Position numbers and translations under genes: made by a program. The notes beneath the pieces were generated by a model. That model was not told the DNA's origin. It worked only from the letters and a program-made list of their open reading frames with translations, and did not search any database. DNA of 64,000 nucleotides from Protoeuglena noctilucae (lineage: Eukaryota), in assembly GCA_958009085.1 (NCBI GenBank), contig OY253677.1, positions 930,001-994,000 of the forward strand, written 5' to 3'. Shown one piece after another: positions 1-64,000 of the stretch; position 1 is the first letter of the stretch, and each line of letters begins with the position of its first letter.

Positions 1-628
1 CTGGCAATGGCGTCCCATCCGCTCGCGACGCGCAGGACAGTGCGGCGAGCGTGGCGTGGCACCCCCGAAAGGGCACCCTGGCCATCGCGGCACGCCTCAG
101 CAAGAAGCTGCTGGTGGCGACACCCACGGACGAACCACCCAAGGAGCGGGCGGCGTCGGGGGGGCAGGCGAGGGGGCTCTCTCGTGTGCGAAAACATGGA
201 GCTGCCTCGCATGCGTGGCTGGCTGTGAGTGCCCAGCCCTATCTGTGCCCCGTTTCACTGGACCCACAGTTCCTTACCCCCATGTGCAGGCCGCCAACGC
301 CGAGCCCGCGCGCCCCTTCGCCTCCCTCCTCCACCGCGCCCTCGACGCCCCTCCCTTCGACCCGTACCGCCGCCCTCCCCCCCGCGACCACCCCTTCATG
401 CCCGCGGCCGCACGCCCCCTCGACCGCTACGCCCCGCCCGCCGCGCCCGTGCCCCCCAGCCGGCGCGGCTTCCCCGACGGGCGATTCGTGGGGGACCCCG
501 CCTACGCCCGGGGCCCGCCGCCGGGGATGTACGCGGGGGGAGGGGGCCACGTCATGCCGCCCAGCCGGGGGGGCGCCATGCCGGGGGCGGGCATGTACGG
601 CTCAGGGCCGCCGCGGCAGATGCGATGA
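1..628 (+). CDS. 3' end of a probable WD40-repeat protein with a Pro/Gly-rich C-terminal tail (partial, spliced)
   Basis: Exon ~36-167 reads DSAASVAWHPRKGTLAIAA (WD40-like 'VAWHP'). A GC-AG intron (168-289) joins it in frame to a P/G/M/Y-rich tail ending in TGA at 628. Confidence 0.45.
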   Translation, partial: WQWRPIRSRRAGQCGERGVAPPKGHPGHRGTPQQEAAGGDTHGRTTQGAGGVGGAGEGALSCAKTWSCLACVAGCECPALSVPRFTGPTVPYPHVQAANAEPARPFASLLHRALDAPPFDPYRRPPPRDHPFMPAAARPLDRYAPPAAPVPPSRRGFPDGRFVGDPAYARGPPPGMYAGGGGHVMPPSRGGAMPGAGMYGSGPPRQMR

Positions 629-719
629 GAGTATGTGTGTGTATGCGTGACGATGTAGGCATATGCACTTTCAACCCATGTGTTTCGTCACAAGTGCCTT
701 GCGTTGAACGACCACTGAA

Positions 720-2796
720 TCACTCGTCGGCATGGGGTGCTTCGGACTGCGTGACTCCCGCTGCCTCGAAGATCTGGTTGAGGACCGTGGCGAAGAACTG
801 GTCGAACTCGTCGGCCGGCTTCTGTTTCTCGAACATCCTGGGAGCAGATGAGAGAGTGAGAAGAAGTGGGCACGTGGGGTGAGTAGGGATAAAGCCAGAG
901 CCGTGGTTCCCAGAAAGGCAGATCCGGCCTCACCGGTATGCGATGGCGACGATAAATCGCTCGAACATGGGCTCGTCCACCGCCACGGGCGTCGGCATGA
1001 GGGTCATCTGCGTCACGTCGGGGTCGGACCCGCTGCTCCCGTCCGCCCCCGCGGCCGCGAAGAGGAAGCAGAGCACGACGTCGTTGGCGGGGACCATGGC
1101 CGGCACGATGCCCCACCGCTGGAGGTGCGTGAGGAGGTAGCGCACCTCCACGCGGGCCACGCCGTCCGAGGAGCGGACGCGCTTGAGCTGCGGGTGGGGG
1201 TCGATGCGGGGGAGGTGGGAGAGGGTAAAAGGGATGGTGGGTGAAGCATCTGCGTTACGGAAGCGACGGGTCTAGCGAAGGCATTGCCCCCGTCCCTTGC
1301 CTGCACGCTGGCGAGGGTCTGGGCCAGGAGCTCCCTTGCCCGCGCGACCCAGGCCTGGACCTTGGGGACCCACGCGGGCCGGAAGTGGTCGATGTCCTTG
1401 TTGACCTTGGGCACCACGTGCGGCATCAGGTGGTCCAGGACCAGGCGCCGCAGACGCAGGGGCAGGGGCTCCGTGGCATGCGGGTCGTCCTCCATGAACT
1501 GGGGGGGAGAACAGACGAGTGCATTGAGTTTCATTGGCCTTTATGACCATGACCTTCTCGTATACGCAACAGCTGTCGACCAGCACAGTCCGAGGAGCCT
1601 GACTGCCAATGCCGAGTGTGCAGGCTCTGCCCCCCTTCCCTCCCCCATCCCTCGCCTTCTCGCCCGCCATGACGACCAGGACGAGCATGAAGTCTCGCAG
1701 GTCGGCCTCCGTGACGGGCGCGCGCCCCTTGGCCTCCCTGGCCCGGGGGGAGCTGGACACCACGCGCTGGAAGACGGCGTCGGCGCGCTGGGAGTGGAAG
1801 GCCTCGGTAATGACCTTGGCGTCGCGGCAGAACATGTGGAAGTTGGAGGGGTTGAGGTAGTCGACATGGAGGGAGACGCTGCGGGCGAGAGGTGGGGCTG
1901 GCATGCGGGCTGCCTCTGCCCATCTCACCACACCCCTGCGACCCTGTCCCGCTCTGATCCCGTCACCTGTCGCTGCCCCCGGCCTCCCCGGCCACCGTGT
2001 AGTAGACGAACAGGCCCTGAATCATCCCGGCGAAGTCCTGCAAGGGTAGCATGGAGGCAGAAGTTACTGCCCCATCCACTGGGGCACCACAAGGTGTCAG
2101 CAGCACCACTGGTCAAAGCGCCTGCTTCCCACGCAACAAAGCGCCACTTGGTCCACCACCGGCTCGCCTGCAGGACGCTCTTCACTTCCGCCAGCTGCTG
2201 CGTCTTGCCCGCCCCGTGGTCCTCCTCCCCCCCGACGATGAGGTAGTCGAGCCCCTCTGCGCCCAGGTCCATCCCCGTCAGCCATTCGTCATACCGTGGC
2301 AAGACCAGCTGCCCGTCTGACCACTTGAACGGGGGCGTCTTGGGGCGACCGTCCCACGGCACCCGGAACTGCTGCGGGCCGGGGCCGAACTCCACGAACA
2401 CCTCGTCCCCGTTCTCGAGCATCTCGTTCAGAACCACGTCGCCGTCCATGGGGACCCCGTCGCGCGTCAGCACACTCTGCAAAGGGCGGGACTCATGGGC
2501 TGTCGCGTTCTCCGCCCGTTGCCCATTGCTCTGGTTCTCCGGAAGCCACCAAAGGCACTATGCAGAGGGTACACACATTGCAGCGCACGCAACGGCTGCC
2601 CGGCGCGGCCCCGCGCGCCGCTCGCCTGGGGCACATGTGTGCCGAGCAGGCCCTTGGTGTCGTAGGCCATGCGCGCGCAGGCCGTGACGCCCAGCCACCG
2701 GACGAGCTGCTCCCCCGATCCGCAATATATCTCCAGCGTGTGCTTGACGGCGTTGAGGGACGACCCCACGGATATCATGTGCACGATGACCCGCAT
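720..2796 (-). CDS. Uncharacterised multi-exon protein with an N-terminal Par3/HAL-N (PB1-like) domain
   Basis: The spliced N-terminus MRVIVHM...CGSGEQLVRWLGVTACARM...MDGDVVLNEMLENGDEVFVEF resembles the HAL/Par3 N-terminal domain (from memory). Exons are strongly codon-biased. The last exon FEKQKPADEFDQFFATVLNQIFEAAG ends in TGA at 720. Confidence 0.6.
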
Positions 2797-3335: not shown

Positions 3336-5376
3336 ATGGGAATCAAGGCGAGGCGTCTCTTGGTCTGTGCGGTTATGTTCGCGATTCGTTGCTTGATATT
3401 GAAACCAACCAGGGCCTGTGGGCCACCTGCGGCCGACGCCCGCGCCGGGAAACCCGCGCCCGCTTTGCCACAGCGTGTTCGGTCCGCGCCGGCCCCTGCG
3501 CTCGCTCCGCGTGACATCCACCCTCCCTGGTGGATGTCACCTCAGCTGCTTTACTTCCGCAGGGCCTAGCGAAGCTTATCGGGGACGCGGCCCCCCAGGC
3601 CGTGAAGGACGTCAGGTTTGAGCAGTACTTTGGCCGCAAGGTCGCCATCGACGCCTCGATGCACATTTACCAGTTCATGGCTGTGGTGGGGCGCACGGGG
3701 GATCAAGTGCTGACGAATGAGGTCGGTGGGCGCGGCGAGGCAGATGCTCGGGCCTTGGCGGGGCGGCGCCTGGGTCCGCACGAACACTTGCCCCTCCCCT
3801 CCTCGCCAGGCCGGAGAGATCACGGCGCACCTCACCGGAATGTTCTACCGGACGCTGCGGATGCTGGAGGCGGGCATCAAGCCCCTGTACGTGTTCGACG
3901 GCAAGGCCCCGGAGCTGAAGAGCGGGGAGCTGGCCAAACGGAGGGAGAAGCGGGCGGAGGCGGAGGCGGAGCTGGCAAACGCCAAGGTGAGGCGGAAAAC
4001 CCATGCGGAGGCGGGCATGGCTCGACGGATGGTGCCCAGATTGACCCGGGGTGGTGGTCGGGGCGTCTTGTAGGTGGCTTTCGGTTGTCGCTGCAGGAGC
4101 AAGGCGACGACGAGGCCATTGAGCGGTACGCCAAGCGCAACCTGCGCGTGACGAGGGAGCACAACGAGGAGTGCAAGCGTCTGCTGCGGCTCATGGGTGC
4201 GGGTCTCGTGCAGGATGTGTTGCAAAGGGTGTGTTCTCTGGTAGCAGCGCTAAGCCCGTCTCTGTCCCTTCCCATCTTCTGCAGGGGTGCCGGTGATCGA
4301 CGCCCCCTCCGAGGCCGAGGCGCAGTGCGCAGAGTTCGTGCGGCAGGGGCTGGTGTACGCGGCAGCCACGGAGGACATGGACTGCCTGACGTTCGGTGAG
4401 TGGGGAGGGGTAGGCATCGAGGTAGTGGTGGGATGTTGTGAGTGATGCCGGGAGTGTGTTACAGGGTGCTTCCAGTACCCTGCACATCCCCACCTGCTGG
4501 CGCGCGAGCCCTGCCCATCAACGACCCCCTGGCCCCCACGTCTCAGGCACCCCCCTCCTCTGCCGCCACATGATGGCCCCCGCGAGCAAGGACGCCGCCG
4601 TGGTGGAGATCTCCCAGCCCGAGGTCCTCAGCGGCCTGGGCCTGACGCAGGCGGAGTTCGTGGACCTGTGCATCCTGTGCGGGTGCGACTACTGCCCCAC
4701 GATTCCCAAGCTGGGCCCCAAGACGGCGCTGAACCTCATCAAGGAGCACCGCTCCATCGACGAGATCCTCCGCCACCTCGACCGCGACCGCTACCCCGTC
4801 CCGGAGGACTTCCCCTATGCTGAGGCCCGGCGCCTGTTCCTGGAGCCAGACGTGCAGCGGGAGGGGCTGGGGGAGGTGCTCAAGTGGGGGGCACCCGACG
4901 AGGAGGGGCTCGTGGCCTTTCTGGTCAACGAGAAGTCCTTCCAGGAGGAGAGGCGAGAGGCCGGAGGGGGCGGCCATGTGTGGCGTCGCGTCACTGAGCT
5001 CGCTCAGCCGTGCGCGTATCATGCGTCACCCAACATGCATGGCCGTGCTTGCGTGTGACATGCGTCTTCTCCCACCTGCCCTCCCCAGGGTTCGCAAGGG
5101 CGTGCAGCGCATCCGGGAGCAAGGGCAAGGCGGCGCAGGGACGCCTGGAGTCCTTTTTCGGCCCCGTCACAGTGACCAAGAAGGCGGCCAAGGAGGGGGA
5201 GGGGAAGGGGAAGAAGGGAGCGGGGTGAGTGGGCACGGCTGGGGCAGGCGCGTGCGTCGGGCAGTGGCCGCGGCGGCACAGCAACACTGGCAAAGCGTGG
5301 CGATCGCAGGGCCAAGGCCGCGCCCAAGAAGGGAGGGGTGATCGGGGGCGTGGGGGGCAAGAAGAAGGCTAAGTGA
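3336..5376 (+). CDS. FEN1: Flap endonuclease 1
   Basis: [12 protein letters not shown]..., [78 protein letters not shown] box QGRLESFF, basic tail. 7 introns. Apparent frameshift near 5117. Confidence 0.96.
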
Positions 5377-15808: not shown

Positions 15809-17071
15809 ATGGCATCTCTCATGCGCTGTGCATTGATTTCCAGGTCCTCGGTGCGCCCGGCGCAGCGGGCGAACCAGGATGCCCTGGGCCCTGCTCCATC
15901 GCACGGCCTTGCGGGCCCGCGGGAGGACCAGGTGGGGGCGTCGCAGCGTCCGCGATGTTTTCATTCATATCGTACGCGTCCAGCACACCCGTGGCCGGCC
16001 ACTAAGCAACGCTCCGCTTCCCGCGATGGTATCTGCCGCCGGGCCCTGCGATCGCAGGCGATTCTCGCGGCAAGAGGCTCGTCCAGGCGCAACGTGATTG
16101 CACGTGTCTCCAGGCGATCTCTCATGGGCGCCGTGTCAGTGGGAGGCGCCGTCTCGGCACTCCAGTGGGCGATGCCGCGTGCGGGCAAGGCGAGTGCAGC
16201 GTCTTGCTGGCCACGCCCGCACCTTTCCACCGTGGCACCTCCGTCCGGCCTCCCAGGTGACATTTGCGGCTCCCTCCACGCCGTCACGACGCCGCGCCTG
16301 CAGGCATTCACCCTTCCTCCCCCTGGGTTCTCCTACCACGTGGACCAGATCGATGGCTACTCGTTCTACTACCCCTCCGAGTGGATCCAAGTGACTTCGT
16401 CGGGAAACGACGTCTTTTACCGCAACGTCCGAAACCTCGGTGCGGCGCGGAGGGGGACGCTGCGGGCACCTGCAGCATTGGGCACCAGGCAATGGCGCCG
16501 CTCATCAATCGGGTGGGTCCCTTGCCACCCAGCCGCTCCCATTGACCGCCGCAGACGAGAACGTGTTCGTCTCCGTTTCTTCGCCCTCGACGTCGCGGTA
16601 TGACAGCGTGCGGGACATCGGGACCCCCCAGGAGGCGGCCGGCAAGTACCTGACCCAGTGCCTGAATGAGCTCATGTCCACGCGCCTGGGGGTGCGCAGG
16701 GAGGGGGAGATCGTGTCCTACGGGGAACGGGAGGCGGACGGCGCGCAGTACTACGACTTGGAGCTGCAGGCACGTGGGACGCTGCGCGGGGCCGAGGCAG
16801 TCGCGAAGCCTCGGCAGTTCGGCTGATGTGTACTCGATGGCCCCCGTCCGCCCCGCAGATTCGTTCGTATGCCTCGCGGCAGCAGCTGGCCATCACGGCC
16901 GAGGAGCGGGAGGGGGCGCTGGAGCTCGAGTGGGACAGGCGCCTGCTCATCACGCTGGGGGTGGGGGGCAAGCGGCTCTACGAGCTGCGCCTCCAGACGG
17001 CGTCCAGGACCGCGGACGAGGACCGTGAGCGGCTGAGGACCATCCAGGAGTCCTTCCGGGTGGTGGCGTGA
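15809..17071 (+). CDS. PPD1: PsbP-domain protein 1 (thylakoid lumen, PSI assembly)
   Basis: Transit peptide with twin-Arg SRRSL, then DGYSFYYPSEWIQV..GNDVFYRN, DENVFVSVSSPS, ELMSTRLGVRRE, YYDLELQ|IRSYAS, LEWDRRLL..LGV..KRLYELRLQT. Confidence 0.88.
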
Positions 17072-17096
17072 GGATTCAAGGGCAGCTAGCAGGGTC

Positions 17097-40988: not shown

Positions 40989-42347
40989 TCACGGCTGACG
41001 CGTCTGTTTTGACGCGTCGCCGCCGCCCTCAGCCGTGCCTTCCCCCTTGTCCTCTCCCTCCACATGGATGGTGTCTGAAATGCTGTAACCCTCGTCGGGG
41101 ATGTTGGGAGGGTTGCGGCCCTTGGCAGGGGCCGCCATGGTGCGCCAGTCTTGCCCCAGAGTGGGGCTGTGGCCGGGTGTGGTGCCCCAGACGTGGCCGT
41201 TCAGGTAGCGAGTGGAGTCGAACGCCTCGTCCTGGCGACGCCCCACGTCCGTGGCAGAGTAGCCAGACCGCGTGACGAAACCTGGTCACAGAAGGAGAGG
41301 GGCACGTGTCATATCTGTGTGCCATTCAAATCCATGGCACGGCACGGAAGGGTCGTCGGCCCGCACCTGCGCGGGCCTGCTCGGCGGCTTCATCGCATGC
41401 AGGACGAGCCCTGCCCCCCTGCGTGCGCTGGGACGGGGGTCTCGGGGACAAGGGGGGCCTCTGACTCTGCCAGCAGGCACCCGTGGGTATGCCAGGCGCC
41501 ACGTACATCACCAGCACACCCAGCACGCGCCCCTCACCTCCGCCCTTCTCCCCCGACCCATTGTCCTGCAGGTACGCCTGCCACAGCACCTCCTTGGCGG
41601 ACGCAGTGTGGCTCGTTACCCTGGCCAGCCCTGCCAGGTCCTCCGGGTCCATCCGCATGGCGTCCTTGGCTGCGTCGTCCGACTCCGCCAGCACCAGGAT
41701 GGGCTGCCCCACCTCCACGTGCTGCCCCTCCTCCACCAGCAGCCGCCCCACGTAGCCCTCGTCCGCCAGCTCCACTTGCAGCCGCGACACGCCCGCCAAC
41801 TTGCCCACCTTCTCCCCCGGCGGGACCAGGTTATCCGTCTCGACCTCCGCCACAACCGCGTTGGCCGGCACAAAGTCGCCGTGCGCGACCTTCCAATGCG
41901 CCACCCGCCCCGACGTCATCTCGTGGCTGAGCTTCGGCATCTTTAGGAACGCCACCCGGTCTGCGGAGTCTTGAAGGGCCTCGATCGACACCGAAGGCCC
42001 ATTGTCATAACCACTAGCACATACAAAAACAGTACAGTCGCGTGGAGACCATCGACGGCCTCGGCGCGGGCCCCAGCCTCGCCTTTGATGGCCGCTGCCG
42101 TGCTCGCCGCCCGCGAGGCGAACGCAGGAGATAGGGGGGCGCGATCGAGCACATTCGTCGCAACGCCTTCGATTGGCGACACGCCGGGTGAAGGCCCGCG
42201 CTGAACGAATGCGCCGGGCAGAGTCGATGCACCTCCACACAGCACGACCGCGCCAACAGCGCCGACGTCGCGCCGAAGGCTCGCGCCCGATGCAGCCCCG
42301 AAGAGCCGCATGCTCACGGGCAGGAGGCGCGCGCAGGATGGCGGCAT
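40989..42347 (-). CDS. Stand-alone biotin/lipoyl-attachment-domain protein with an organellar presequence
   Basis: LKMPKLSHEMTSGRVAHWKVAHGDFV...AEVETD...DEGYVGRLLVEEGQHVEVGQPILVL is an E2-type lipoyl domain. No catalytic domain follows. Confidence 0.75.
41084..41088 (+). promoter_or_regulatory. TGTAA poly(A) signal candidate for the RAP-like gene
   Basis: TGTAA about 250 nt after the stop at 40835. Confidence 0.35.
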
Positions 42348-42716: not shown

Positions 42717-43661
42717 CTACTCGGCGCTGCCGCCGACCGCCCGCGTGTAGATGGCCTGCGCATGGTGCACGTTGACGGGCTTGATCGCGCCCTTGGCCAG
42801 GAGCTCCTTCAGCGCGGCGCGGGCCAGCGAGCCCGAGATCCGGAGGCGGTCCGACAGAGTGGAGACCGTGATGAGCTTGGACTTGACAACCTCGTTGTTG
42901 AGCTGCGGGGACGAGGCGGGGACGAGCGGAGGATTGAGCCAAGCGACGGGCCGGCGCACGGCCGCCTAGCAAAGCTGTTACAGATGCAGGAAAGCCCGCA
43001 TGCAGAGGCCAGGAGCGCAAGGCCGGCGCAAGGAGAGGGTGCCAACCGGGGGCTGCCGACCGCTGCACCGTGTGCCAAGGCGGGCGCCCGCACCTTCTCG
43101 TACGTGGCCTTGTCGAAGAGGACTAAGTTGTTGACCTTCTCCTTCAGCTTGCCCTGCAGGAAGCACCGGGGACGGGCCGAGGTTGCCCGGTGTGCAGAAA
43201 GCGACGGTCGCAGGGCCGAAGGCACCCACGCCGGGGCGGGAGAGCCCCCGCGGAGAGCCCAGCGAGCGAGAGACACGATCACAGGGCTGAGCACGCCTCG
43301 CAGCTCGCCTTCGACCACTTCTTCTTCTTCCCCTTGGACGCGTTGGCCGCGGCCAGGGCCTTGGCGGCCTTGGACGCCTGGATCTTCGGCGGCTGCGGGC
43401 AACGCGACGAGGAGGCCGTTTACTACCAGGCCAGGCGCGACGCTCAGCCCCGACGGCCCCGGGGCGCTGCAACGCGGCCAGAAGGGGCAGGCGGGTCGGC
43501 GTGGCGGGAAACGCGCGCGGAGGCGGGCCGACGACCTCTCATGAGATCAAGCAACAAGTTCACGGGCAAGGATGCCCGAGGGGAGCGCGAACGGCCCAGT
43601 CGTGGCTAGTCGTCCCGCGTCGTCGACGGCGGGGGCCACGGTGGCGCTCATCGCTCACCAT
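42717..43661 (-). CDS. RPS25: 40S ribosomal protein eS25
   Basis: M|PPKIQASKAAKAL...KGKKKKWSK|GKLKEKVNNLVLFDKATYEK|LNNEVVKSKLITVSTLSDRLRISGSLARAALKEL..KGAIK..HHAQAIYTRA. Confidence 0.97.
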
Positions 43662-46712: not shown

Positions 46713-49700
46713 ATGGACGAGCTGGATATCGACGACCTCGTGCGGGAAGACCAGGTGCGCTGCACGGTGCACGTATTTCCCACTCGGCCCCCGCGTGCGG
46801 CGTGTCGTCTGCCGAACAGCCCCACGTGCATCGCTCAGTGCTATGTTCATAAGAAGAGCTCTCATCGTCGGGCGCCCTGCGGCCCTCGCGCTTGCGGCAC
46901 CGCAGGCTGGCTGGCGCCAGGCTGTGCCCCCTCTCGCGCCGCTTCGCAGCAATGGATGCAGGATGAGGAGTACCTGGAGGACGAGGAGGCCATGATGGAC
47001 TGCACGGACGCGGGTCAGCTCCGAGGCGGGACCCATCCCTCCCGCCTCAACCGCCCCACCGCGTCGGCGTCCGTGCACCAGCCCACGCCCTGCACGGCGC
47101 TGTCCGGCCTCGCAAGCGCCACGCAGGCGACGGAGGGACCCCCGCTCGACACGCAGCGGGGCGAGGACCTCCTGGCGTTGGCCGCTGGCCCACTCACGCA
47201 GACACAGGGCGGGGTCAGGGAGGTGCCCGGACCTGACGAGGAGGCAAGGGGCTGCGGGGCGAACGCAGCGGATGGCGCTGCCCATGACTGCAACACCCAG
47301 ACTTTCACATCCAAGATGTCGTGGCCTGTTGTCGGACTCTTAGTCACGACCCACGCTCCTCCTATCCCCCGCAGCTCCCCCGCCTCCACTGGCACCGCGG
47401 CGAGGCGTCCTGGGACCCCTCGGGGCCCTTCTCGGTGGAGATCACAGCCCCGGACATGGGCGACCGCGTATACTGCTGCGCGTTGGAAGCAGAGGCCGCG
47501 GCACTAGATGGGGCGGGGCTGGGGACGGGCATGCATGCGGCACTGCGGGGAGCGGAGCAGAGGGACACGCTGCTGACCAAGGCGAGCGGGCTGTCGAGGG
47601 TGTTGTTGCGACGCACATGTGATGCACTAGTGGTTGAGGTGCCTGGTTGCCACCATGCATGCTGGCCCATCCTGTTGCCCCTGCGCGGTCGCAGCCGATC
47701 GATCAGCTGATGCGGGAGGTGGAGGCCATGCACGTGGAGCGCATTCTGGAACTGACGCGGCGGGAGCAGCAGGCCGCGGAGGCCCTGGGGGCGGGGGACA
47801 CTCCCACTGACGACGCCAGGGAGGGGGAGGGGCACGGGCAGCTGTGGGTGGACAAGCACGCGCCCAAGGTGGGGCTGGCGTGACTCTGCTACCATTTACA
47901 TTGAAAGTGCGTGTCCTGCATCAGCGCTTTCCAGTTACACTCATTGTGTTATGACATGTGTACCATGACGCCCTGCCCCACACTGCTGCAGCGCTACACT
48001 GATCTTCTGAGCCCCGAGAGCGTCAACCGCGAGGTTCTCGCGTGGCTGCGTTCCTGGGACGCGTGCGTGTTCCGCCGCCCCGTCCCCGACGCCGTGCTGC
48101 AGCTGGGGGCGGGCGCCGTGCGGCACGACTTCCATTGGTCCGAGGCGAGGAGGGAGGCCACAAGGAGGAGGGCGGGCGACGCGGAGGCGGCAGCGTGGCA
48201 GCTCGGACCCGACAAGCGGCCCCGGCATAAGGCGAGGCCGGGCATGCAACGGGTGACGCTGGATGCAAGCCTTGCCTGCACTGGTGTGCGACCAAAACGC
48301 AAGCGTCGCCCCCACCCAGATCATCCTCCTCTGCGGCCCCCCCGGCATGGGCAAGACGACCCTGGCCCACGTGGCTGCCGCCCAGTGTGGTTACCGCGTC
48401 GTGGAGGTCAATGCCTCGGACGACCGCACAGGGTCGGCCCTGGCCACGCGCATCGCAGACGCGGCGTCCAATCGATCCGTCACGGCAGACAGGAGGCCCG
48501 TGTGGTGAGATACAGACAGACGCACCTGGCCCAGCCCCACCGCTTGTGCGCTCGCATGTGCCCTGTGGCCATCGCCTAATGCACCCCCCTGCTGCAGCGT
48601 CATTGTGGACGAGGTCGACGGTGTGCTGGGCGGCGAGTGCCAGGGGGCGGTGGCCGCGCTGCTTTCCCTGGTGCGCAGCGAGGGGGGGCGGCAGGGGCAG
48701 GGGGGGACCATGGGAGGGGACGCGGGGGTGGCATCCGACAGCGACGACGAGGGCCGGGCGGCGCCGACCACGCCCGCGCGCAAGACGCCGGTGCGTGGCG
48801 GCGCCTCCCCCCTGCGCGGCGGGGCTTCCCCTTTCCGCGACTCTGGGTCGGGGCGGCGGGGGCGGATGGGCACGGGCGCTCCCCGGGCGCTGCTGCGCCC
48901 CGTCATCTGCATCTGCAACGACGTGTCGGCCCCGGCCCTGCGACCCCTCAAGGAGGTGGCGCGCGTCTTCCACTTCACGCGCCCCAGGTGGGACGTAGTT
49001 ACATGCCGCCTGCCTCCGCTGCTACCCTCTCATGTGCCACCGCAAGCGAAAAGCTTTTCGCTTTTTCAAGCGCCTCTGTCACGCAATGCGACGTGCTCTG
49101 ACGTGTCAACTCTGCCATTCCCCATGTCGTGTTTCGCAGCGTTGCCGCCGTCACCGACCGACTCCGCGACGTGGCGCGGTCCGAGGGCGTCCGCACCGAC
49201 CTGCGCGCTTTGCAGGTGCTGTGCGACAAGACGGGCGCCGACGTGCGCGCCTGCCTCCACACGCTGCAGTTCGTGCACCGCCAGGGCAGGCACCTCACGG
49301 TGGCCGATGTCCTGGGAATGACATTCGGTGCCAAGGACATGACCAAGGCAAGGGGGTACTTGCTAGCGATAAGCAAGTTGCGTGGGTATCTACACAGTCG
49401 GACTTGGTTGCCAACCACAGCCTTTCTCTCCATGACCCCCGCAGTCCATCTTCCAGCTCTGGGACGACCTCTTCCACACGCCCTTTGCCGACCACGCCTC
49501 GGCACCCGCCTCGGGCACCCTGTCCCTCTTCCACACCCTCCAGGGCCACGGCGACTACGGCGTCGTCGCCGCCGGGTGCTTCGAGAACGTCACGGCTGTC
49601 TTGGGCGGCGACAGCGCTGTGGACCGACGCGCCGGCCCCGCTGCTGCCGCCCTCTCCGCGGCCGACGCCCTGGCCACCGCCGCCGCGAGGAGGGGGGACT

Positions 49701-51465
49701 TCGGGTGCCTGCAGGCGAGACACGATGGCATGGCCAGCCACAACCACTTTGTCATAAGCACACACCCCAGCTGTGTCTCCTCACGCCCCGTGTCACCATG
49801 TGCACACACCCCAGCCCCGTAACCTGACCCCCATACCGTGTCCCTGTGCTCCGCAGTACGTCCCCGGCTTCCTCCTCTCGTTCCGCATGCACGTGGCCGG
49901 CCCCCACCGCCACTTCCTCCACTGGCCCCGTGTGGATACGGAGGCCGGGCGCAGGCGGGCCGCCAACCACGCCCTCGTGCGGGGGTGGGCCAGGGGCGTC
50001 GACCCCACCGCGCGACCCTCCCTGCGCGGCGCCTGCGCCGTCGCCGAGGTCATCCCCGCCGTCGTCTGGGCCGTGGCGCCCGTCATACGGTAACAGACAC
50101 AGCTGCTGGTCTGCTGCCCTGCATGACAGCTCTGGGGGCCGCCTCACACCTCACCCCCAACCCCACCCCCAGGCCCGTGCCCATGGACCTCCTGACCCAG
50201 CCCGAGCGCGTCCTGCTCTCTGAGGCGGCCGACACCCTCCTGGCCCTCGGCCTCAAGTTCGCCCCCGACCCCCACCCCGTCCCCAACGCCCTCGGCCAGG
50301 TGAGATGGCCAGGCAGTCTGCGCAGTGCTGACACCCTGCATGACGAACACAGCACGCTGACTGCATTGCCAGGAATTGGCTCTCGACAGCGACGCATGCC
50401 GTATCAACTCTCATCTCATGTGCAGCCGGACGATGGGGAGGACCTGCGAGGGAAGATCCGCTTCCGCCCCTGCACGCCCGTGTCCCTGGAGCCTCCCCTC
50501 GACACCCTGCACTGCTACGGGGGCCGACCGCCCAGGGGCCGGGAGGTCCCGCCGTCCGTGCGGTGAGGGGCACACGCATAGCCAAGCAGCGACACCCCCC
50601 GTGCGGCGGGCATCAGCCGCGGATATCAGTGACAGCTGGGTGGTGCTCTCTCGGGTTCGCTTTCCAGCTCCTCACACCCGCACCGTGCCCCACATGCGCT
50701 GCCTGACGCTGCCCTGAGTGGTGCCCCTGTGGTCGCAGGCAGCTGTTGACCCGGGCGGTCCAAGACGAGGCCATCCGACGCGCAGCCACGCGGGGCATGG
50801 CGGGAGAGGACGGACTCAGTCCGGGGCCGAAGCCAACGACCCCGGGGACGCCGCAGACCAGGGCCACCCCTGGCAGGGAGGGGACGGGGGGGTCACGGGG
50901 GCGCAAGAGAGCCGGGCAGGGCAGCACGCCCGGCACGCTGGCGTGGGTGAGAGTCGCGGAATGGCGCATTCCTAGGCGCGCAGCCACGGTGTCTCTCCGA
51001 GGCCGGGAAGCCTGGCACTGTGCTCTGGCACGCCGTGGTTGCCAGCGCTGTGCGTGTCTGACTGGGTTGCCCCTCCCCTTCGACCCTGGCCCAGGAGCCC
51101 AGCCGAGTGGTGGCGACGCTGGAGGAGCGCATGGCCAGCCACGCGCCGCAGCCCAAGCGTGCCCGGGTGGGCGGCGCGACGTGGATGGACCAAGCGAGGG
51201 AGCAGCGCCGGGGGGCCGAGTGGGGCGGGGCCGACAGGGGCAGGTGGGGAGGAGAGCTGTCTGGCACATGGCGTTGTGAAAAGGTGACGTGGGGATGTTT
51301 GTTAATCATGGACTGAGATATGCCATTACGCGCCTCGACTGCAGGCCTGGGGCCGGAGGTGGGGACAGGGGCGGGACGCGGGACACCGGGGTGCGGTTCC
51401 GTCACAACGAGGGCCTCACCAACGCCATCCGGCGCGCCGTGCGTATGCGGGATCTGCTGGGGTGA
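46713..51465 (+). CDS. CTF18: Chromosome transmission fidelity factor 18 (RFC-like clamp loader)
   Basis: LWVDKHAPK|RYTDLLS...NREVLAWLRSWD, Walker A CGPPGMGKTTLAH, EVNASDDR, IVDEVDG, RPVICICND, DVRACLHTLQF, C-terminal FRHNEGLTNAIRR. Confidence 0.93.
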
Positions 51466-51622: not shown

Positions 51623-51769
51623 GTGTTTCGCTCTGGCGGCCTGGGTCTGGCAATGCACGGGCCGCCCCATCCGGCTAGGGGAAGCTAGGAGGGGAGAGGG
51701 GGGAGGGAGACGGACACGTGCGGGCGGCGAGTGGCGCCGCCCGAGCACGCTCCTGCCGGCGGAGACCGC

Positions 51770-53341
51770 TTAGGGCGAGGGCACGAAGCGGCTGGCGGCG
51801 TAGGCGAACCCTGCGGGGATAACGCGAGGGGGGGGATTAAGACATGCAGGCGGCTGGTGTCATCGCAACGAGGGAAGTTGACATCGCGACATCCCAGCCA
51901 GCACGAGGGACGTTGTTATGACACCGACTTGTCCCATTCCCGCGCTTGCTCCACCGCCGCTCACCATTGTTGGTGCCGGGGTCGGCGAGGTGCGCCTTGA
52001 GGTTGGCGATGGGGCCCTCGCCCGTCACGATGGCCTGGACGAAGAAGCCGAACATGGAGAACATGGCCAGGCGGCCGTTCTTGATCTCCTTCACCTTGAG
52101 CTCGGCGAACGTGTCGGGGTCGTCGGCCAGGCCCAGGGGGTCAAACGCCTCGCCGGGGTAGAGGGAGTCGAGGCCCTCGCCCGCCGGGCCGCCGTTCACG
52201 CGGTACGCCTCGACGGCGCCCATGAGCAGCACCTGGGGGACAGGGTCGGGGCGAGGTGGTGTAAGATGACTGCTCCAGCAGTGCAGTCGTTGCTCATCAC
52301 CCTCATCGCCCCTGCCTTGCTCCCCAGCCCTCCCCGCGCTCGCCTGGCAGATGAGCGTGGCGATGATGCTCTTGGCGTGGATGAGGGCGTTGGAGCCGAG
52401 GTAGTTGAGGCCGTTGTCCTGGAAGATCTGGGCGCCAGCCTTGAACCACACGGGCTCAGCGAACTTGACGCCGTTGTCGGCGAGCAGCTCGGGCGTCACG
52501 CAGCCAAGGGCGCCGAGCATGGCCCAGCGGGCGTGGATGACCTCGAGCTCCCGGTTGCGGCGGAAGGCCTCGGGGTCCGCCGACAGGCCCGCCGAGTCCC
52601 AGCCGTAGTCACCGGGGAACTCGCCCTTCAGGTACGACGGCGGGTTCGTGAACGGGCCCAGGTACGTGGCGCGGTTGGGGCCGTACCACTCGACCGCGGC
52701 GCGGGTCACGCGGCGGGTGCCCTGGGAGCAAGGAGTGGGTGGGGCTGATACGTCGATCCGGTCCAATCCTGCCGACCCGCGCCATGCAGGGCGCAGCGCG
52801 AGCGAAAACGCAGATGTCGTGGCCGAGATCGGAGCCCTGGAGAGCGCGATCGCGTGAAAGGACGCCGGCCGAGTGCTTTGCACGAAATCTAGGTTCGGGC
52901 GCGCCCGCACGGCGAGGGACGCACAGCCACGCACAGCGCGGCCTACAATCGGCGTAAAGAACTCGCTTACGCAAGTCTCGAGACCCGATCCGAGCCCCTC
53001 GAGCCCGGGCCGAGGAGCGGGCATGTCCCGAATCGGAAAGCGAACCCATGCCCCGCACGCCGCGGCCAGTGGGTGAGCGGGGGGCGCGGTCGCGTACTCG
53101 GCTTTTAAAGAGCGGAACAAAGCGCGCAGGCGGTCCAGGGAGCGCCTGGGTCGGCAGGGCTGGGGCTGGAACCAGCTCTGCGCCGGCTACACGGTCCGGG
53201 CGGGAGCCCCATGCATGCGATCAGGCACTCGAAACGACTTCTGTTCGGAGGACGACGCGGGGGCCCGATCATGAGGACGAGAGAGCTCACCTTGCCGGCA
53301 GCCGCGGGGGCCGCGAGGGTCTTGCCAAGGAACGACGCCAT
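51770..53341 (-). CDS. LHCBM: Major light-harvesting chlorophyll a/b-binding protein of PSII (LHCII)
   Basis: [97 protein letters not shown]; 3 introns. Confidence 0.97.
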
Positions 53342-53753
53342 GGTCACTTTGCCGGATACGATCGAAAGCCGAACTCCCCGAGGACGGGGGGGCGAGCTGG
53401 GCAATAAGCCGCCCGGAGATCTGGGGAGGGTACTTTATCTGGCACGATGCGATCGCCTCCGGTGATCTGGGAGTGCGGTGGCGTGTTTACGGAGCTGCTG
53501 GTCCTATGTGGCTACTGATCCCACGGTGTTTCGGCGGGCAGCGAGCCAAGCATGTTTTAGGCAGCCTTGCGAGAGCGTGGCTGCGAGGCAGGGTACCATG
53601 AAGGGCAGCCTGAAAAGCGGGAAAGCGCTATCCGTCGGTATCTGTTTCGATGCGCATCTCACGAATCCTATGTCAGCACCAGCCTAGTCGTACTTGCGTA
53701 CTTCAAAGTTTCCGCTATGCCCTGCCAATTGCCCTCGCCCGGCGAGCCCCGCG

Positions 53754-56052
53754 TCAGGGCTGCCCCGCCACCAGCAGCTTCCCCCCCTGCACCGTCGCCT
53801 GCGTCAGGGGCACCCCCACCGCCCGCGCCAGCTCCACCAGTTTCACCAGCAGAGGGTCGGCCGCGTCCCGGCCCACCCCCGCGCGGAAGCGCTGCAAGGC
53901 CGCGGCCAGGTCCACGGGGCGGTACCTGTCCATGGCCACCACCGCCGCCCCCGCCGCCACCACCACCCCCACCAGCACCGCCACCGACAGCACCAGCCGC
54001 ACCAGGGCGCGCCCCACGGCCCCGGCGCCCGCCGCCACCCCCGCGCCCGCCGTCGCCGCGCCCCTGCTCGCCCCGCCGGCCTTGCCCGCCGCCCCCACCC
54101 CCGCGGGTGCCTTGCCCGTCAGCGCGCACACCGCCTCCTCCGCGTGGTGGGCGTGCTTGGACGCCGACGTGCCCCGCTGGTCCAGGAGCTTGGCGTGCCT
54201 GGAGAGGGAGAGAGCAGCGCGTAGTACGTGGGGATTGCAACGTATCTGTGCAACATGCCGGCTGCGGCATCTCTCTCGTGACACGCCCTCCCTCTCACCT
54301 GGCGCTCATGTCTCGCAGCATGGCCTGGACGTGCTTGAGCTTCACCTCGCGGGCCGCGGCCTCCCCGCCGGCCCCCGCCGCCAGGGCCCGCAGCAGGCGG
54401 CTCGACCCACGCAGGCCCGGCTTGTGCTTGCCAGCCCAGGCCTCGGCAGCCTCAGGGCACACGGCCACGGCGTGCAGGGCCAGAGGGGCCAGGTGCGCCA
54501 GGGACGGGTCGTTGACGCTCTCGGCACGCCGCTCAGCTGCGGGGAGGGGCGGCGCGGTCGGTGGACCTTCCATGCGTGGCATGCGGCGCAGGGACTACGC
54601 TGTTGGCAGCTGCGCGACGTGCCCGCAGCCACGCAGGCCGTGACGATCTCGGAGCAGAAGCCCTTGCGGTCCTTCTTGATGGCCCCCTCGGAGAGAGCGG
54701 CCAAAAGCTGCGCTGCCTGCTCGCGGCACGCGCGGGGCAGCGGCACGGTGGGGGCAGCCGCGTGGGCGGTGGCAGTGCCCGAGGGAGGCGGGGCGAGGGA
54801 CAGGGCGAGGGCGAGGAGGGCACCGGGGGGCGCCACGGCCTCGCCGATGCCCGGGGCCGCCTTGGAAGGCGCGGACGGAGCGGCGCGGAGGAGGGAGAGG
54901 GCCAGGGACAGGAAGGCCTGAGAGAGAGAGGGACACCGCACAGGGGTGGCGCTGTGCTTCGCTTGCAGGAATGGGGTGACGCGCATTGACTACCAAGTGT
55001 ATGCAGTGCATCTACCATGCGGCAGTCGTGCTGGCATTCCCCTCCTTGCCTGGGAGGCGGCGGCCGGCATGACCGCCACGGTCGCGGCATCGGGGACATC
55101 CACCTTGGCCCCGAGGGGGTCGAGGAGTGCCCCGGCGTACGAGGGCCCGACGACCTGGGGGAGGACGGCGCGCATAAAGAGCCCCAGGGCGGACAGGGAG
55201 CCCGCGGGGTTGCGTGCCATCTGGGGACAAAGAGATGGGGTAGCCATAAGGGAGGGGAAGTGGAGAGGTGGTGAGAGGAAACTGGGAGCCATGCGCATTG
55301 CCATGCGGGGGCGGACCACGCACCTGCTGCAGGGCGTAGACCAGGAGGGTGTGCGTGCTGGGCCCGGTGAGCACGGGCCCCAGGCGGAGGACCCCCGGCC
55401 ACGCGGCAGCGACGCCCGCAGGCGAGGCGCGGCAGAGTGCGGCGAGGGCCACGAGGGCGCCCGTCTCGAAGTTGGCGGTGCCGAGGGTGCGGGAGGCCCC
55501 GCGGAGGAGCGACACGGCCGCGGACCCCACCCCCGCGGCGTCCTTGCCCGCCAGCCACGTCTGCAGGCGGTCCCAGGGCTCCCTGGACAGGAAGACGGGG
55601 GTAAGGGCTGGGTCGCACGCGAGAGGACACTAAGCTTGGGTGGCATGTAATCAATTGCGGTGCCCTAAGGGAGGCTGCGAAATCTGCATGGCTGCGAAAT
55701 CTGCATGCGCCCTGGCACTCACTTGGGCACGGCCGCCACGGCGTCCACGTCGCCGGACAGCACGGCGGCCGGCTCCGTGGCGCAGTCGGCGAAGCACGCC
55801 ACGAGGGGCTCCAGGGCCGCCCCGACCTGCTCGGCCGCTCCCTTGTACTGCTTGTCGGCCGCGGCCATCGCCTCCGTCAGCGCGGCGAGCGTGACGCCGG
55901 CGCCGCACTCGGCCACCTTGCGCTTCGGGGCCGCCTTGCGGGGCTCCGCCGAGGGCTTCTTGGCCTGCAAGCAACGCGGTTGTGAGCTTGGCCGAGCCTG
56001 TGCATCCATCGCCCTTCCGCGCGCTCGCGCCGCGCCGCACGTGCCTTGGCAG
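53754..56052 (-). CDS. TMEM214 / DUF2359-family protein (5' end lost in gap)
   Basis: K-rich start, LLVYALQQ|MARNPAG...LGLFMRAVLP, AEAWAGKHKPGLRGSSRLLRAL, and a C-terminal TM LVLSVAVLVGVVVAAGAAVV. This matches the DUF2359 layout as I recall it. Confidence 0.6.
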
Positions 56053-56252
56053 NNNNNNNNNNNNNNNNNNNNNNNNNNNNNNNNNNNNNNNNNNNNNNNN
56101 NNNNNNNNNNNNNNNNNNNNNNNNNNNNNNNNNNNNNNNNNNNNNNNNNNNNNNNNNNNNNNNNNNNNNNNNNNNNNNNNNNNNNNNNNNNNNNNNNNNN
56201 NNNNNNNNNNNNNNNNNNNNNNNNNNNNNNNNNNNNNNNNNNNNNNNNNNNN
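56053..56252. other. Assembly gap (200 N)
   Basis: Run of N. Confidence 0.99.
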
Positions 56253-58848: not shown

Positions 58849-61235
58849 ATGGGAGTGTCGGTCGCGAGGACGCGCGACGCGGTGAAAGGGGAGGCGGGCG
58901 TCGATAGCAAGCAAACGCGAGTGGTGGTCCTGCTGCACGGGCTCGGTGAGGCACCAGCGGCGGCGCAGAGCTGCTTTTCGCACCGCAGCACGTGCCCAGC
59001 CACGCCTTCCCCGTCGCCGCAGCGCGCTCGTCCGGGTGCATGCGTGGGATCGCCGCGACGCTCGAGGAGCACCTCGCCCTGCACGGCCTCTCCGGCCCCG
59101 GCGACCGCTGGGTGGTCCTGAACATCGGCTACCCCACGCGGTCGGGGTCCCTGGAGGCGCTGGTGGGGCAGGCAGCCGACACAGTGCGGCGAGAGTGCAG
59201 GGATCGCGGCGTGGACATCGCGGGCGCGGAGTGGTTCGCCGTCACCCACTCCTTAGGCGGCCTCCTGGCGCGTCACCTCCCCTCGGCCCTGGGCGTCCCC
59301 TTCACGCGCATCGCCATGCTGTCACCGCCCAAGTGAGGCAGGGCCCATGCAGTGTCATCGCCACGCATGACGCAAGTCATACTCATGCCTAGCAGCACTG
59401 CACTGCCTGCCCGATCAAACTAACTGTGAGTGGAGCATGCGTCAACCCCCACCCCCACCCCGCCCCCAGCCAAGGCAGCACCCTCGCCCGCCGCCTCGTG
59501 CGCGGCGTCCCCCTCGTGAGCCCCGCCTTCCGCGCCCTCTTCGGCCCCGTCGCCGACGACCTCGCCCGGGGCGCCAGCACCGACGGAACCCCGTGGCCGG
59601 TGCCTGACGCGGCCGTGGGAGTGGTCATGGGCACGCGCCACCTGTCCCTCGCGCACCCCGTCTCGTGGCTCGCTGCCGCGGGGCGTCTGCTGGGCCCGGG
59701 ACCGTCGGACGGCACCGTGGCTCTGGCGGAAATGGCGCTGGGGGAGGTGCGGGGCACGTACGGCGGCCAGGGGGCACGCGTGTGGGGGTGGCCGGGGTAC
59801 GAGGGGCCCAGGTGAGAGTGTATAGATGCGTGGTGACACATTGAGACCTTGTTTTGGGGGGATTGTCGTTTCGTCAGAGAACAATGCCGTGTCTCTCAGC
59901 GCCTTCGCTCCCTTGGTAGCAGGCCCACCTCATTGCATCCCAGCCAACTACATCCCTCCTGCATAACAAGCCTCACCTGGCACTCCTCACCCTTCCATGT
60001 CCCCCAGGGGTGTGGAGGTGGAGGCGGCTGCCGTGCCTGCCTCTCACACCTTCCTGATGTACAACCAAGAAGCGCAGCTCCTGGCGGCGCGCTTCGTGGC
60101 CCACGGCACCTTCCGCGGTGCAGGGCACGCCCCGGTACTGCCGGCCACCCCAGATGAGAGTCGCAGCAGCGGTGGGGCGGGCGGGGTGTCAGGAAACGAT
60201 GACGACGAGAGGTCCCCAGGCATGGTGGCTGTGGCAGTGGACGGGGCGGGCGCGGCTGCATCCGGGTTCCCTCGCCCCCCGCTTCCGCACGCCCTCCGCG
60301 TGGGGGCGCATGCATTGCGTGCGGGTGGCGTGGTGGCCGTGCCCACCGACACGCTCTACGGCCTGGCGTGCGCGGCCACGAGCAAGGAGGGCATCCTGCG
60401 CCTGTACCGCATTAAGGGCCGCGACGGCGGCAAGCCCGTGGCGGTATGCGTGGGGGACGTGGCGCAGGTGGCCGAGTGTGGGGAAGCCGACCACCTCCCG
60501 CAGGCGACGGTCATGAGCGGTCATGGGGTGGAAGAATCTTAAGCGTACACTCATCAACATACATGTTTGCAAATGCCAACCATTGGTTACTCTTACTTTA
60601 GTGGAGCCTCTTGCTAACTTTGCCCCACACCTTGGCTGTGCTTTACTCGCCCCTTCCTCTGCCATCCCTCTCAGGGTCTCCTGGAGTCGCTGCTTCCGGG
60701 GCCCGTGACGGTCGTCCTGCGCCGCCGCTCCTCCGCGCCCCTCAGTCCCTGCCTCAACCCCGGCGTCCCCACCATCGGCATCCGCGTCCCCAACTGCCCC
60801 TTCATCGTCGCCCTGTGCCGCGCATATGGCGGACCTGTCGCGCTCTCCAGGCGAGATGGCTGATGATGAACAAAAATCGTGTGCATGGTGACACTGCACT
60901 GATATGCAGGTGCAACCAACAGGGTGGTCATTTGCAATCGCCATTCGTCAGTCACCATCATGCGGCTTCCTGTGCAGTCACTCTCTCCTCCTCCCCTTCC
61001 CCGCAGCGCCAACCGCAGCGGCGCCCGCAGTGCCCTGGAGGTCACGGAGTTTGAGGAGCTGTGGCCCCAGCTGTCGGCGGTGTTTGACGGGGGCCCCATC
61101 GCCAGCGGGCGTGCAGGGTCCACGCTGGTGGACCTGACCAGGGAGGGGCTTTATGAGATTCTCAGGGACGGGGATGCGAAAGAGATGGTGGAGGGCGTGA
61201 TGGGGAGGTTTGGGTGGACCAGGTGCAGCGACTGA
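58849..61235 (+). CDS. YRDC: Alpha/beta-hydrolase fused to YrdC/Sua5 (TsaC) threonylcarbamoyl-AMP synthase
   Basis: Hydrolase: VVLLHGL|ARSS, GYPTR, VTHSLGG, SPPN|QGS, SDGTV, ASHTFLM. YrdC: VVAVPTDTLYGLAC, LYRIKGR...KP, LLPGPVTVVL, IGIRVP, ALS|SANRSG, GSTLVDL. Both halves share exon 60008-60503. Confidence 0.85.
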
Positions 61236-61488: not shown

Positions 61489-62215
61489 TCAGCCCTGCAC
61501 CACCTTCCCATCCTTCCCCTCGAACGTCACGCTGACCGAGTTGACGCAGTGGCGCGTGTTGGTCTCCGTGAAGCCCTCCCCCGTGAAGACGTGGCCGAGG
61601 TGGCCACCGCAGTTGCTGCACGTGATCTCCACGCGGCGCATCCCGTACGAGTTGTCCTCCGTGCTGCGGGCAACCCACAGCAAGAGATGGGGGATGAGAC
61701 GGGAGGTGCAGGGACCCACCCGCTGCTGTTGGATGCCTCTCCTCCCAGGACATTACTACGAATTCATCTGCTCCATTGAGAGCGCTACGTACGCCCTCTC
61801 CACCTTCAGAGCCCACCATACCCCAACCCCCTCACCGCTCCACCGCCCCGGGGAGCTCGCGGTCGAAGGCGGGCCACCCGCAGCCGCTGTCGAACTTCAT
61901 GGCCGACGTGTAAAGAGGCTGGCCGCAGCCCTTGCACTTGTATAAGCCCTCCTCGTAGAATTTGTTCAGCTTGCCCGTCCCTGCAAGGGGCGATGCGTTC
62001 ATCTCGCCACGGTGGCCTGGCCGACCCGCTTTACCCGCCCCACTACTGGTTCGTGTTCTGCAAAACCTACGAGGCCTGGCCCGTCGCCACGCCATTCCGG
62101 CCCCGCACTCACCCGCGCGCTCCGTGCCCTTCTCGCGCAGGACCTGGTAGTCCTGCGCGGACAGGATCTTGGCCCACGTGCTCTCGGGCGTCGACTTGTC
62201 CAGCTTCTCCGCCAT
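61489..62215 (-). CDS. MSRB: Peptide methionine-R-sulfoxide reductase B (Cys-type, Zn-binding)
   Basis: YQVLREKGTERA|GTG, YKCKGCGQPL, KFDSGCGWPAF, RVEITCSNCGGHLGHVF, RHCVNSVS. An in-frame upstream extension to 62398 may be a transit peptide. Confidence 0.95.
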
Positions 62216-62936
62216 GGCGCAGACCGAGGTGCGCAGGAAGCGGGGGTATCCTGCAAACGAAGGCCTTATACGCGCGTTCGGAGTAGCACTGCGGGCCTGG
62301 ATAGAGCGAAACGGTGCAGACGCATCCGTGGCCACGCCCTGGAAACGGGTGCTCCCGCCCGCGGCATCGGAGCTCGCCGGGCCAGATCCCCTGTGCATCG
62401 AGGACAGAAGCTAGCAAGGGAAACGTGGCGATCAGCCAAGGCCGGCAACAGTGCATAAGCGACCCGCACGATTGAAAAGCCGTGTGCCGCGCCCACGACC
62501 AGGCTCGAGTCGCCCGTTTCCTCAAGCACCGCTATCATAATGATGTCTGCTATCTGGGCCGCGGATCTCCCGCTCACCGGGGACCTTGGTGGTGCCCAAC
62601 ACCGTGCGAGCCAGGGACGGCCTGGCGAACGTGGCCATGGGGCGCCTGTGATGCGATTCCGCTGCTGCCGGACGACCTTGGTGGCACAAGCTCAGTAATA
62701 AATGATGGCACCTCGCCGGCTGCGATCATGGCCGGACCGGTCGGACTGACCCTGAGTCCGGGCCGCGGCCGGTGTCGCAGGCGCTGTCGGGGGGTCGCCC
62801 TTGGTAGGGAAGAGAAAAACGGACGCGCAGTGTCGCGCAATCTGCCGGAACCGGCCAAGTTAGTGTGCGCGGGCTGGCCCACCTCGCGGCAGCCGAACCT
62901 CGCGCTTTCGCGCCTGTCACCTGACGCGTAAGAACC

Positions 62937-64000
62937 ATGTCGAAGACGGTGAAGATGAAGGGGCTCACGGTGAGGAACCTCGTGGCTCCCCTTGCCACGC
63001 GGATGGGCACGCGCCAGTGCGCCTCGCAAGCGGCCTGGCCCCGCACCTGATGGACGCTGCGAGGCCCCAGCCCGCACCTTACCCTGTCCGTGACGTGGAC
63101 GCTGGGCCTGGTTTCCTGACGCGGGATTCCAGGGCGCGAGTGGGGCGCTTCAAAAGCGCGCAAGCTTTTCTTCCCTCCCGGCGACATCTGCGCCCGGCTC
63201 TTTGCGCGCATCCGCATGAGTTGCTTTGCGACAGCTGGCTCGCGAGTGCAGTCCCTCACAAGCGTCGGTGCAGGGGCGCTAAAGGGTCGGGTCTGCTCTG
63301 CGTGTCCGTCCTTGCCTGCGGAAGCCGCCCGCATTCGGCCCTCGGCGCCTCTCCCGCAGAACTTCATCCAGGAGATTCGGGATTGCACGTCTAAGGAGCA
63401 GGAGGAGGCGCGCGTGGCCAAGGAGCTCGGCAACATCCGGTGAGGGCAGCACTCCTCGCGCGCCGCCTGCGCCCCGGTGCCCGGATCCGCGCCTTGCGCG
63501 CGCTCTTGCAAGAACCGGATGCATTCGTGCCGGACCCGATCGCCCCCGCCCCGCGCGCAGTGCGAAGTTCAAGGCGGAGAAGGGCGTGTCGGCATATGAC
63601 CTCAAGAAGTACACGTGGAAGCTCATGTACATCCACATGCTGGGGTATCCGATCGAATTCGGGCACATGCAGGCGAGCGAGCAGCGGGTCGGCGCGACGC
63701 CGCGGGGGCGGCGACACCGGGCGTGCCTGCGCTGCCCGCGCATGGCTGTGCAGAGACCCGGCGAGGCAAAGCAGTGGCCCCCTGCGTCTCTCATCCCTCT
63801 TCCTCACCTGTGAGACACCTGGCCCACTCCTCTGCTCCCCCAGGCCCTGGAGCTCATGTCCGCCCCCGCGTATGGGGACAAGCAGGTGGGGTACATGGCC
63901 CTGTCGCTGATGCTGGCGGAGGACCACGAGTTCTCCCGGATGTGCATCAACAGCATCAAGAGCGACCTGCTGTCCAACAACGAGGCCTCCATGTGCCTGG
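62937..64000 (+). CDS. AP2A: AP-2 adaptor complex subunit alpha (5' part, runs off window)
   Basis: MKGLT|NFIQEIRDCTSKEQEEARVAKELGNIR|AKFK...YDLKKYTWKLMYIHMLGY..FGHMQ|ALELMSA..YGDKQVGY. Confidence 0.94.

Follow-up and report, generated by a model that had tools for sequence, protein, structure and literature searches.

Frequent GC-AG introns in a GC-rich stretch of nuclear DNA from the green alga Protoeuglena noctilucae

In animals and plants, introns that begin with GC instead of GT make up about 1% of all introns and have a donor consensus that compensates for the change (PMC3167603). Iwata and Gotoh (2011; PMC3033335) reported GC-AG shares of 39.6% for Aureococcus anophagefferens, 22.2% for Micromonas pusilla, 7.7% for Chlorella sp. 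and 2.7% for Micromonas RCC299; the first three are the most GC-rich of their 61 genomes, and the high shares were linked to G+C content. GC donors account for about 56-60% in Emiliania huxleyi (Feldmesser et al. 2014; PMC4028052), and about 14-17% of introns are GC-AG in pelagophytes (Aureococcus 14-17%, Pelagomonas calceolata about 14%; 2024 preprint, bioRxiv 10.1101/2024.10.30.620910). In the literature on green algae we found shares only for M. pusilla, Chlorella sp. and Micromonas RCC299; the available text of a plant-genome survey (PMC6310983) does not mention algal shares, and its supplements may hold per-species values. Here we describe 64,000 nucleotides of Protoeuglena noctilucae (contig OY253677.1, positions 930,001 to 994,000; hereafter the window), in which GC-AG introns are frequent and are removed from RNA at exact GC and AG borders. 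An earlier, sequence-only reading of the window treated the trait as unreported. It was already in print for GC-rich algae (PMC3033335, PMC4028052): frequent GC-AG introns have been a known phenomenon since 2011, and this organism is a further example.

The window comes from the nuclear genome of a green alga. Its G+C content of 67.4%, a value for this window only, lies above the mark of about 60% that we set for GC-AG-rich algal genomes. It resembles these genomes in its high G+C content, in having tens of percent of GC-AG introns, in canonical AG acceptors and in the mis-annotation that GT-based predictors produce. It differs from them in being intron-rich (NDK7 and CNNM have six introns apiece) and in having non-repetitive introns. 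Genes of Micromonas have about one intron on average. Compared with the U2-type GC-AG introns of animals and plants, the introns described here share the exact GC and AG borders and the stronger match of the remaining donor, but they are about 25 times commoner and their consensus is AG|GCGAG instead of an A-rich form. With the window, the short list of GC-rich algae that are also GC-AG-rich gains an intron-rich green alga whose introns are non-repetitive. The window also helps to part base-composition pressure from a lineage-specific change of the splicing machinery, a question that was called an enigma in 2011.

The window sequence is present in four runs (X1 to X4) of a single marine metatranscriptome study. 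RNA contigs of these runs were aligned on positions 36053-56052, and 15 of 40 joints are listed. Ten of the 15 are GT-AG and three are clean GC-AG (43154-43308, 54537-54622 and 54918-55049); the other two are a GC..AG joint at 52089-52513, which we set aside, and a joint with 20 foreign letters between its sides. Further contig records give two more joints, 41961-42082 (GC-AG) and 40082-40165 (GT-AG). Two proteins extend the evidence beyond this region. P0002 (387 amino acids, from a 1398-nucleotide contig) is 100% identical to the NDK7 gene of the window over 7 exons, which are separated by five GT-AG introns and one GC-AG intron. P0067 (440 amino acids, from a 2328-nucleotide contig) is 100% identical to CNNM, again over 7 exons, with four GT-AG and two GC-AG introns. 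Because their source contigs are so short, both proteins are products of spliced transcripts. Their spliced mapping fixed the AG acceptor and left the donor letters free.

Together, 27 introns are supported by transcripts, 20 of them GT-AG and 7 GC-AG (26%; 95% confidence interval 11-46%), which exceeds the 10% mark of GC-AG-rich algal genomes. The exact removal of GC...AG from RNA is seen for all 7, four through contig joints and three through P0002 and P0067. If the GC-AG rate were 2%, the chance of finding at least 7 in 27 would be 8e-7. The sequence-only reading had put the share at roughly one intron in five, far above the usual level of about 1%; its estimate is about right and the excess is real. 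It had also placed GC-AG introns in genes that it called highly expressed, and they do occur in a ribosomal protein gene (RPS25) and in an LHCII gene.

Two of the donors, 54622 and 55049, are covered by unspliced contigs of X1 (53938-55074) and X2 (53993-55126) with zero differences. Hence, the C at position +2 is no assembly error. Throughout the aligned region, the X1 contigs carry introns and exons at an even low depth, like DNA or unspliced RNA: record 6 (49044-50269) spans two claimed introns unspliced, and record 8 spans three that X3 and X4 splice. X1 is therefore uninformative on splicing either way. Nine of the donors claimed in the sequence-only reading lie between 36053 and 56052, and six of these have no joint among the 15 listed. 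The joint we set aside (minus strand, LHCII gene, X3 and X4) skips 425 nucleotides; one of its sides is only 22 bases long, it lacks the donor consensus and it shifts the frame, and it is probably a chimera of LHC paralogues.

Two of the genes with transcript-supported GC-AG introns show other joints as well. In RPS25 (43132-43308, minus strand), joints of X2 and X4 carry 20 extra letters; these contigs are probably those of a different organism, or of a paralogue with the same conserved exon. In the biotin/lipoyl-domain gene (41280-41536, minus strand), record 18 of X3 has 53 letters between 40888-41279 and 41537-41960, which points to a small exon that the decoder described below did not place.

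Homologues and Pfam profiles place further GC donors (Table 1). At donor 52343 of the LHCII gene, the alignment jumps from 117 to 157 in the query while the solved chain runs from 280 to 283. In FEN1, exon 2 opens at position 5 of the Pfam XPG_N profile; the missing positions 1-4 (MGIK), ATGGGAATCAAG, stand directly before the GC at 3348, and no GT preserves the frame without extra residues. The next four FEN1 introns have GT donors (3722, 3987, 4197 and 4396), with an open frame and continuous Pfam coordinates. The gene at 720-2796 on the minus strand is conserved, with 84 representatives at E ≤ 0.001 and full-length relatives of about 435-520 amino acids; Pfam gives only a weak sub-threshold p25-alpha match. 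Its junctions were judged after MAFFT alignment to 7 homologues, and apparently four of its six introns have GC donors and two have GT donors. In the CTF18-like gene, the exon that ends at 48231 and the following P-loop exon fit solved CTF18 chains; there is an in-frame GT alternative 21 nucleotides downstream, and the ab initio decoder skipped this exon.

As a rough control, not a measurement, we trained a small exon-intron decoder on the 26 introns then known and left donor position +2 free. Over the window it predicted 90 introns, with T at +2 in 43, C in 30, G in 13 and A in 4. As G and C are equally frequent in this DNA, the G count indicates how often the decoder errs. Of the 24 claimed donors the decoder found 17, and of the 26 verified introns 20. 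At least two of its GC predictions in FEN1 are false, since homology gives the GT donors 3722 and 4197 there. This output fits GC-AG introns making up roughly one quarter to one third of the total. An attempt to score acceptors on any AG was too noisy for use.

The sequence-only reading had warned that predictors restricted to GT would mis-annotate such DNA. They do: a GT-only version of the decoder lost 384 bits and put extra residues into two genes with known true products, adding 6 amino acids to NDK7 and altering CNNM. The same mis-annotation under GT-based predictors has been described for Emiliania (PMC4028052). Gene finders that assume GT will give wrong proteins at roughly a quarter of this organism's introns, and RNA-guided or GC-aware annotation is therefore needed.

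What kind of introns are these? The full consensus AG|G.GAG is found in 5 of 7 GC donors and in 3 of 20 GT donors (Fisher p = 0.011, in a small sample). All 27 transcript-supported introns (those in 36053-56052 and those of NDK7 and CNNM) end in CAG, and acceptors seem far less variable than donors. The median intron length is 98 nucleotides for GC and 100 for GT introns. U12-type introns have a TATCCT-type donor box; the 7 verified donors read GCGAG, GCAAG or GCACG, and none has such a box. The major spliceosome uses GC 5' splice sites, in which C at +2 is mismatched with U1 and the other donor positions match the consensus more strongly (PMC3167603). Since the stricter consensus of the GC donors matches this known compensation rule, we read them as ordinary U2-type introns.

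We favor, with a probability of about 0.72, the explanation that these are ordinary U2-type introns of a GC-rich, intron-rich marine green alga, about a quarter of which carry C at +2, with GC-biased substitution as the likely cause. Strong GC-biased substitution pressure would turn the T at donor position +2 into C. The C would survive where the rest of the donor (the exonic AG and GAG at +3 to +5) pairs well with unmodified U1 and U6. The uniform AG|GCGAG look of the GC donors would then follow from survival only in strong donor contexts. Mutation pressure would be the cause, and the spliceosome itself would be unmodified.

Several points weigh against this explanation. First, the comparison of consensus strength is based on only 7 GC donors, and taken singly its two parts are not significant (exonic AG in 6 of 7 GC versus 12 of 19 GT donors, GAG in 5 of 7 versus 9 of 19). 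Second, all 27 introns lie within a single window of 64 kb, and most belong to genes that were examined owing to the claim of frequent GC donors. Third, G+C content is no sole predictor: Micromonas RCC299 has 64% G+C and a GC-AG share of only 2.7%, and the authors who reported it, calling the origin of the trait an enigma, pointed to RNA modification or U1 snRNP (small nuclear ribonucleoprotein) proteins (PMC3033335). Fourth, an Rfam search of the window returned no match at all, and so no snRNA (small nuclear RNA) gene, and the unmodified spliceosome is something we infer.

One could also argue that a modified spliceosome, through changes in U1 snRNA, U1-C, U5/Prp8 or the U6 contacts, reads C at +2 as well as U. 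The share of 7 in 27 is very high and includes the RPS25 and LHCII genes, and the gene at 720-2796 has four GC donors among six introns. That G+C fails to explain the Micromonas pair, for which U1 snRNP proteins or base modification were proposed (PMC3033335), speaks for a modified spliceosome as well. However, the 5' end of U1 is canonical (AUACUUACCUG) in Aureococcus, M. pusilla and Micromonas RCC299 (PMC3033335), and the GC donors of the window still need a near-perfect remaining consensus, an indication that C at +2 remains costly. The relaxed or modified recognition by U1, U5 or U6 that the sequence-only reading proposed finds no support in the window. GC donors keep the remaining consensus more strictly than GT donors do, as ordinary recognition predicts for a costly C at +2. 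We consider a modified spliceosome unlikely. Slightly less likely again is a stronger form of the idea, namely that this alga represents an independent, intron-rich lineage where C at +2 has become nearly neutral through a changed spliceosomal component that reads this position. If this were true, the alga would offer a natural setting in which to learn what enforces GU at the 5' splice site.

A further possibility is that most claimed GC donors are chance occurrences of AGGCGAG in GC-rich DNA and that the true donors are nearby GT sites. The motif occurs 31 times on the two strands, and 100 dinucleotide shuffles give 15.5 ± 4.0, so about 15.5 sites are expected by chance. AGGTGAG occurs 23 times (8.7 in shuffles), and the control motifs AGGGGAG and AGGAGAG occur 24 and 13 times (13.6 and 8.1). 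Taken alone, the AGGCGAG motif is weak evidence for donors in GC-rich DNA, and site-by-site tests are therefore required. The false GC calls of the decoder in FEN1, the in-frame GT alternative at 48232 and the lack of support for 30068 and 16190 also fit a chance origin. Yet transcripts confirm 6 of the 24 claimed sites, and 9 more are supported by the fit to homologues or profiles. The unbiased RNA joints, with 3 clean GC-AG and 10 GT-AG among the 15 listed and one further GC-AG contig joint, argue against chance too. We regard a chance origin of most sites as very improbable.

The remaining claimed sites divide into 6 with coding potential or ab initio support and 3 others (30068, 16190 and 56044). 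Among 23 sites with coding scores, reading through the intron scores negative in 23, the downstream exon positive in 22 and the upstream exon positive in 17. The sequence-only reading had itself named nearby GT donors as what would refute it. For the bulk of the sites transcripts and homology refute GT and favor GC; for single sites a nearby GT may still be the donor. Its description of the motif is accurate: all 24 coordinates read AG|GC, and GCGAG is the majority form with 19 of 24. Two GC donors, 54622 and 1300, were absent from its list.

Finally, the introns could be copies of a mobile family with a GC donor, like the introner elements of Micromonas (PMC4540971), which are likewise short introns of a GC-rich marine green alga and are spliced from GT and GC donors, but blastn-short gave 0 matches between any two of 36 introns of the window, which therefore are not introner elements, and we give the idea almost no weight.

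The sites differ in how well they are supported (Table 1). For the CTF18-like gene, a protein search with one exon gave no match.

Table 1. GC-AG introns and claimed GC donors in the window, grouped by the kind of support.
Feature	Gene	Positions	Strand	Details
GC-AG intron	Biotin/lipoyl-domain gene	41961..42082	-	aag|GCGAGG, 122 nt; record 23 of X4 joins 41960 to 42083
GC-AG intron	RPS25	43154..43308	-	aag|GCGAGC, 155 nt; contigs of X1, X2 and X3; Pfam Ribosomal_S25 on flanking open reading frames
GC-AG intron	Gene with 54537-54622	54918..55049	-	cag|GCAAGG, 132 nt; contigs of X3 and X4
GC-AG intron, newly found	Same gene as 54918-55049	54537..54622	-	cgg|GCACGT, 86 nt; contigs of X3 and X4
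GC-AG intron	NDK7	22492..22589	-	aag|GCGAGC...CGCAG, 98 nt; P0002
GC-AG intron	CNNM	24763..24850	+	aag|GCGAGG, 88 nt; P0067
GC-AG intron	CNNM	25118..25200	+	aag|GCGAGG, 83 nt; P0067
GC-AG intron	LHCII (LHCBM-like)	52233..52343	-	111 nt, in frame; the 37 residues it would encode are absent from solved LHCII chains
GC-AG first intron	FEN1 (MGIK|GL)	3348..3562	+	215 nt; after a 12-nt coding start at 3336-3347
GC-AG intron	AP2 alpha (FGHMQ|AL)	63673..63843	+	171 nt; upstream exon ends at AP2A2 residue 80, next begins at 81
GC-AG intron	Sua5/YrdC	60504..60674	+	cag|GCGACG, 171 nt; Sua5_yciO_yrdC profile from about 65 to 67; in-frame stop 36 nt past donor
GC-AG intron	Sua5/YrdC	60851..61006	+	cag|GCGAGA, 156 nt; profile continuous at about 124|125; in-frame stop 10 nt past donor, no GT between
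GC-AG intron	Gene 720-2796	2477..2625	-	cag|GCGAGC, 149 nt; junction VPQ|SVL gapless in 7/7 homologues
GC-AG intron	Gene 720-2796	2038..2167	-	cag|GCGAGC, 130 nt; gapless in 7/7 homologues
Probable GC-AG intron	Gene 720-2796	1499..1655	-	aag|GCGAGG, 157 nt; indel of 2-5 amino acids by the junction; coding potential drops inside
GC-AG intron, newly found	Gene 720-2796	1188..1300	-	cag|GCAAGG, 113 nt; ab initio decoder; gapless in 7/7 homologues
Likely GC-AG intron	CTF18-like (RPRHK|IILLCGPPG)	48232..48319	+	88 nt; flanking exons match CTF18
Candidate GC-AG intron	CTF18-like	47582..47694	+	Coding potential only; decoder joins its acceptor to another GC donor, 47244
Candidate GC-AG intron	CTF18-like	49348..49444	+	aag|GCAAGG; decoder and coding potential
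Candidate GC-AG intron	CTF18-like	49715..49856	+	Decoder and coding potential
Candidate GC-AG intron	PsbP-domain gene	16770..16858	+	cag|GCACGT; decoder; Pfam PsbP 38-107 before, 111-155 after; acceptor choice uncertain
Candidate GC-AG intron	FEN1, C-terminal region	4953..5107	+	Decoder and coding potential; region poorly conserved
Candidate GC-AG intron	Gene cut by window edge	168..289	+	Coding potential only; no decoder prediction here
Claimed GC donor	PsbP-like gene	16190..16303	+	114 nt, in frame; coding potential does not set it apart from its flanks; twin-arginine signal peptide (16172-16189) just upstream
Claimed GC donor, doubtful		30068..30588	+	Upstream coding score negative; decoder pairs acceptor 30588 with GT donor 30467
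Claimed GC donor beside assembly gap		56039..56044	-	8 exonic bases, then the 200-N gap 56053-56252

The CNNM gene has a peculiarity of its own. An in-frame TAG at 26075-26077 (plus strand) terminates P0067 after ...VVEVD, and an open reading frame at 26078-27097 continues the CNNM frame past the stop with high coding potential and a CNBH/cNMP-binding domain of the same family. The CNNM relatives P0068 and P0069 have no stop at this point and read straight through. The TAG may reflect read-through, a nonsense variant, a split gene or an alternative acceptor at 26086, which is the decoder's choice. A search of metagenome contigs for loci related to P0067 found none.

The closest solved chains to the window's LHCII protein are Chlamydomonas and plant LHCII. 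For NDK7 and CNNM, the best named matches belong to core chlorophytes (Gonium, [Myrmecia] bisecta, Chlamydomonas and Bryopsis), with no identical named protein among them. NDK7 shares about 60% identity with its named relatives (54-62% for Gonium, [Myrmecia], Edaphochlamys, Chlamydomonas and Haematococcus). Six tblastn matches link the CNNM exons to Bryopsis P0069; the two longest have 61-66% identity, the remaining four 32-64%. A joint query of four unrelated exon peptides returned CNNM relatives only, and none for the FEN1, PsbP-like and unassigned-family exons.

Besides these genes, the window holds FEN1, a PsbP-domain gene, RPS25, a CTF18-like ATPase, Sua5/YrdC, MsrB and AP2 alpha, and CNNM is a transporter gene. 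Two gaps of 200 N each interrupt the assembly (30987-31186 and 56053-56252). A Pfam search of 102 further stop-free open reading frames gave three matches only, one to TRM and two to SelR. There is a TRM1-like tRNA methyltransferase gene at 44-46 kb on the minus strand. The MsrB (SelR) gene at 61489-62638, also on the minus strand, has three decoder-predicted introns, each with a GT donor.

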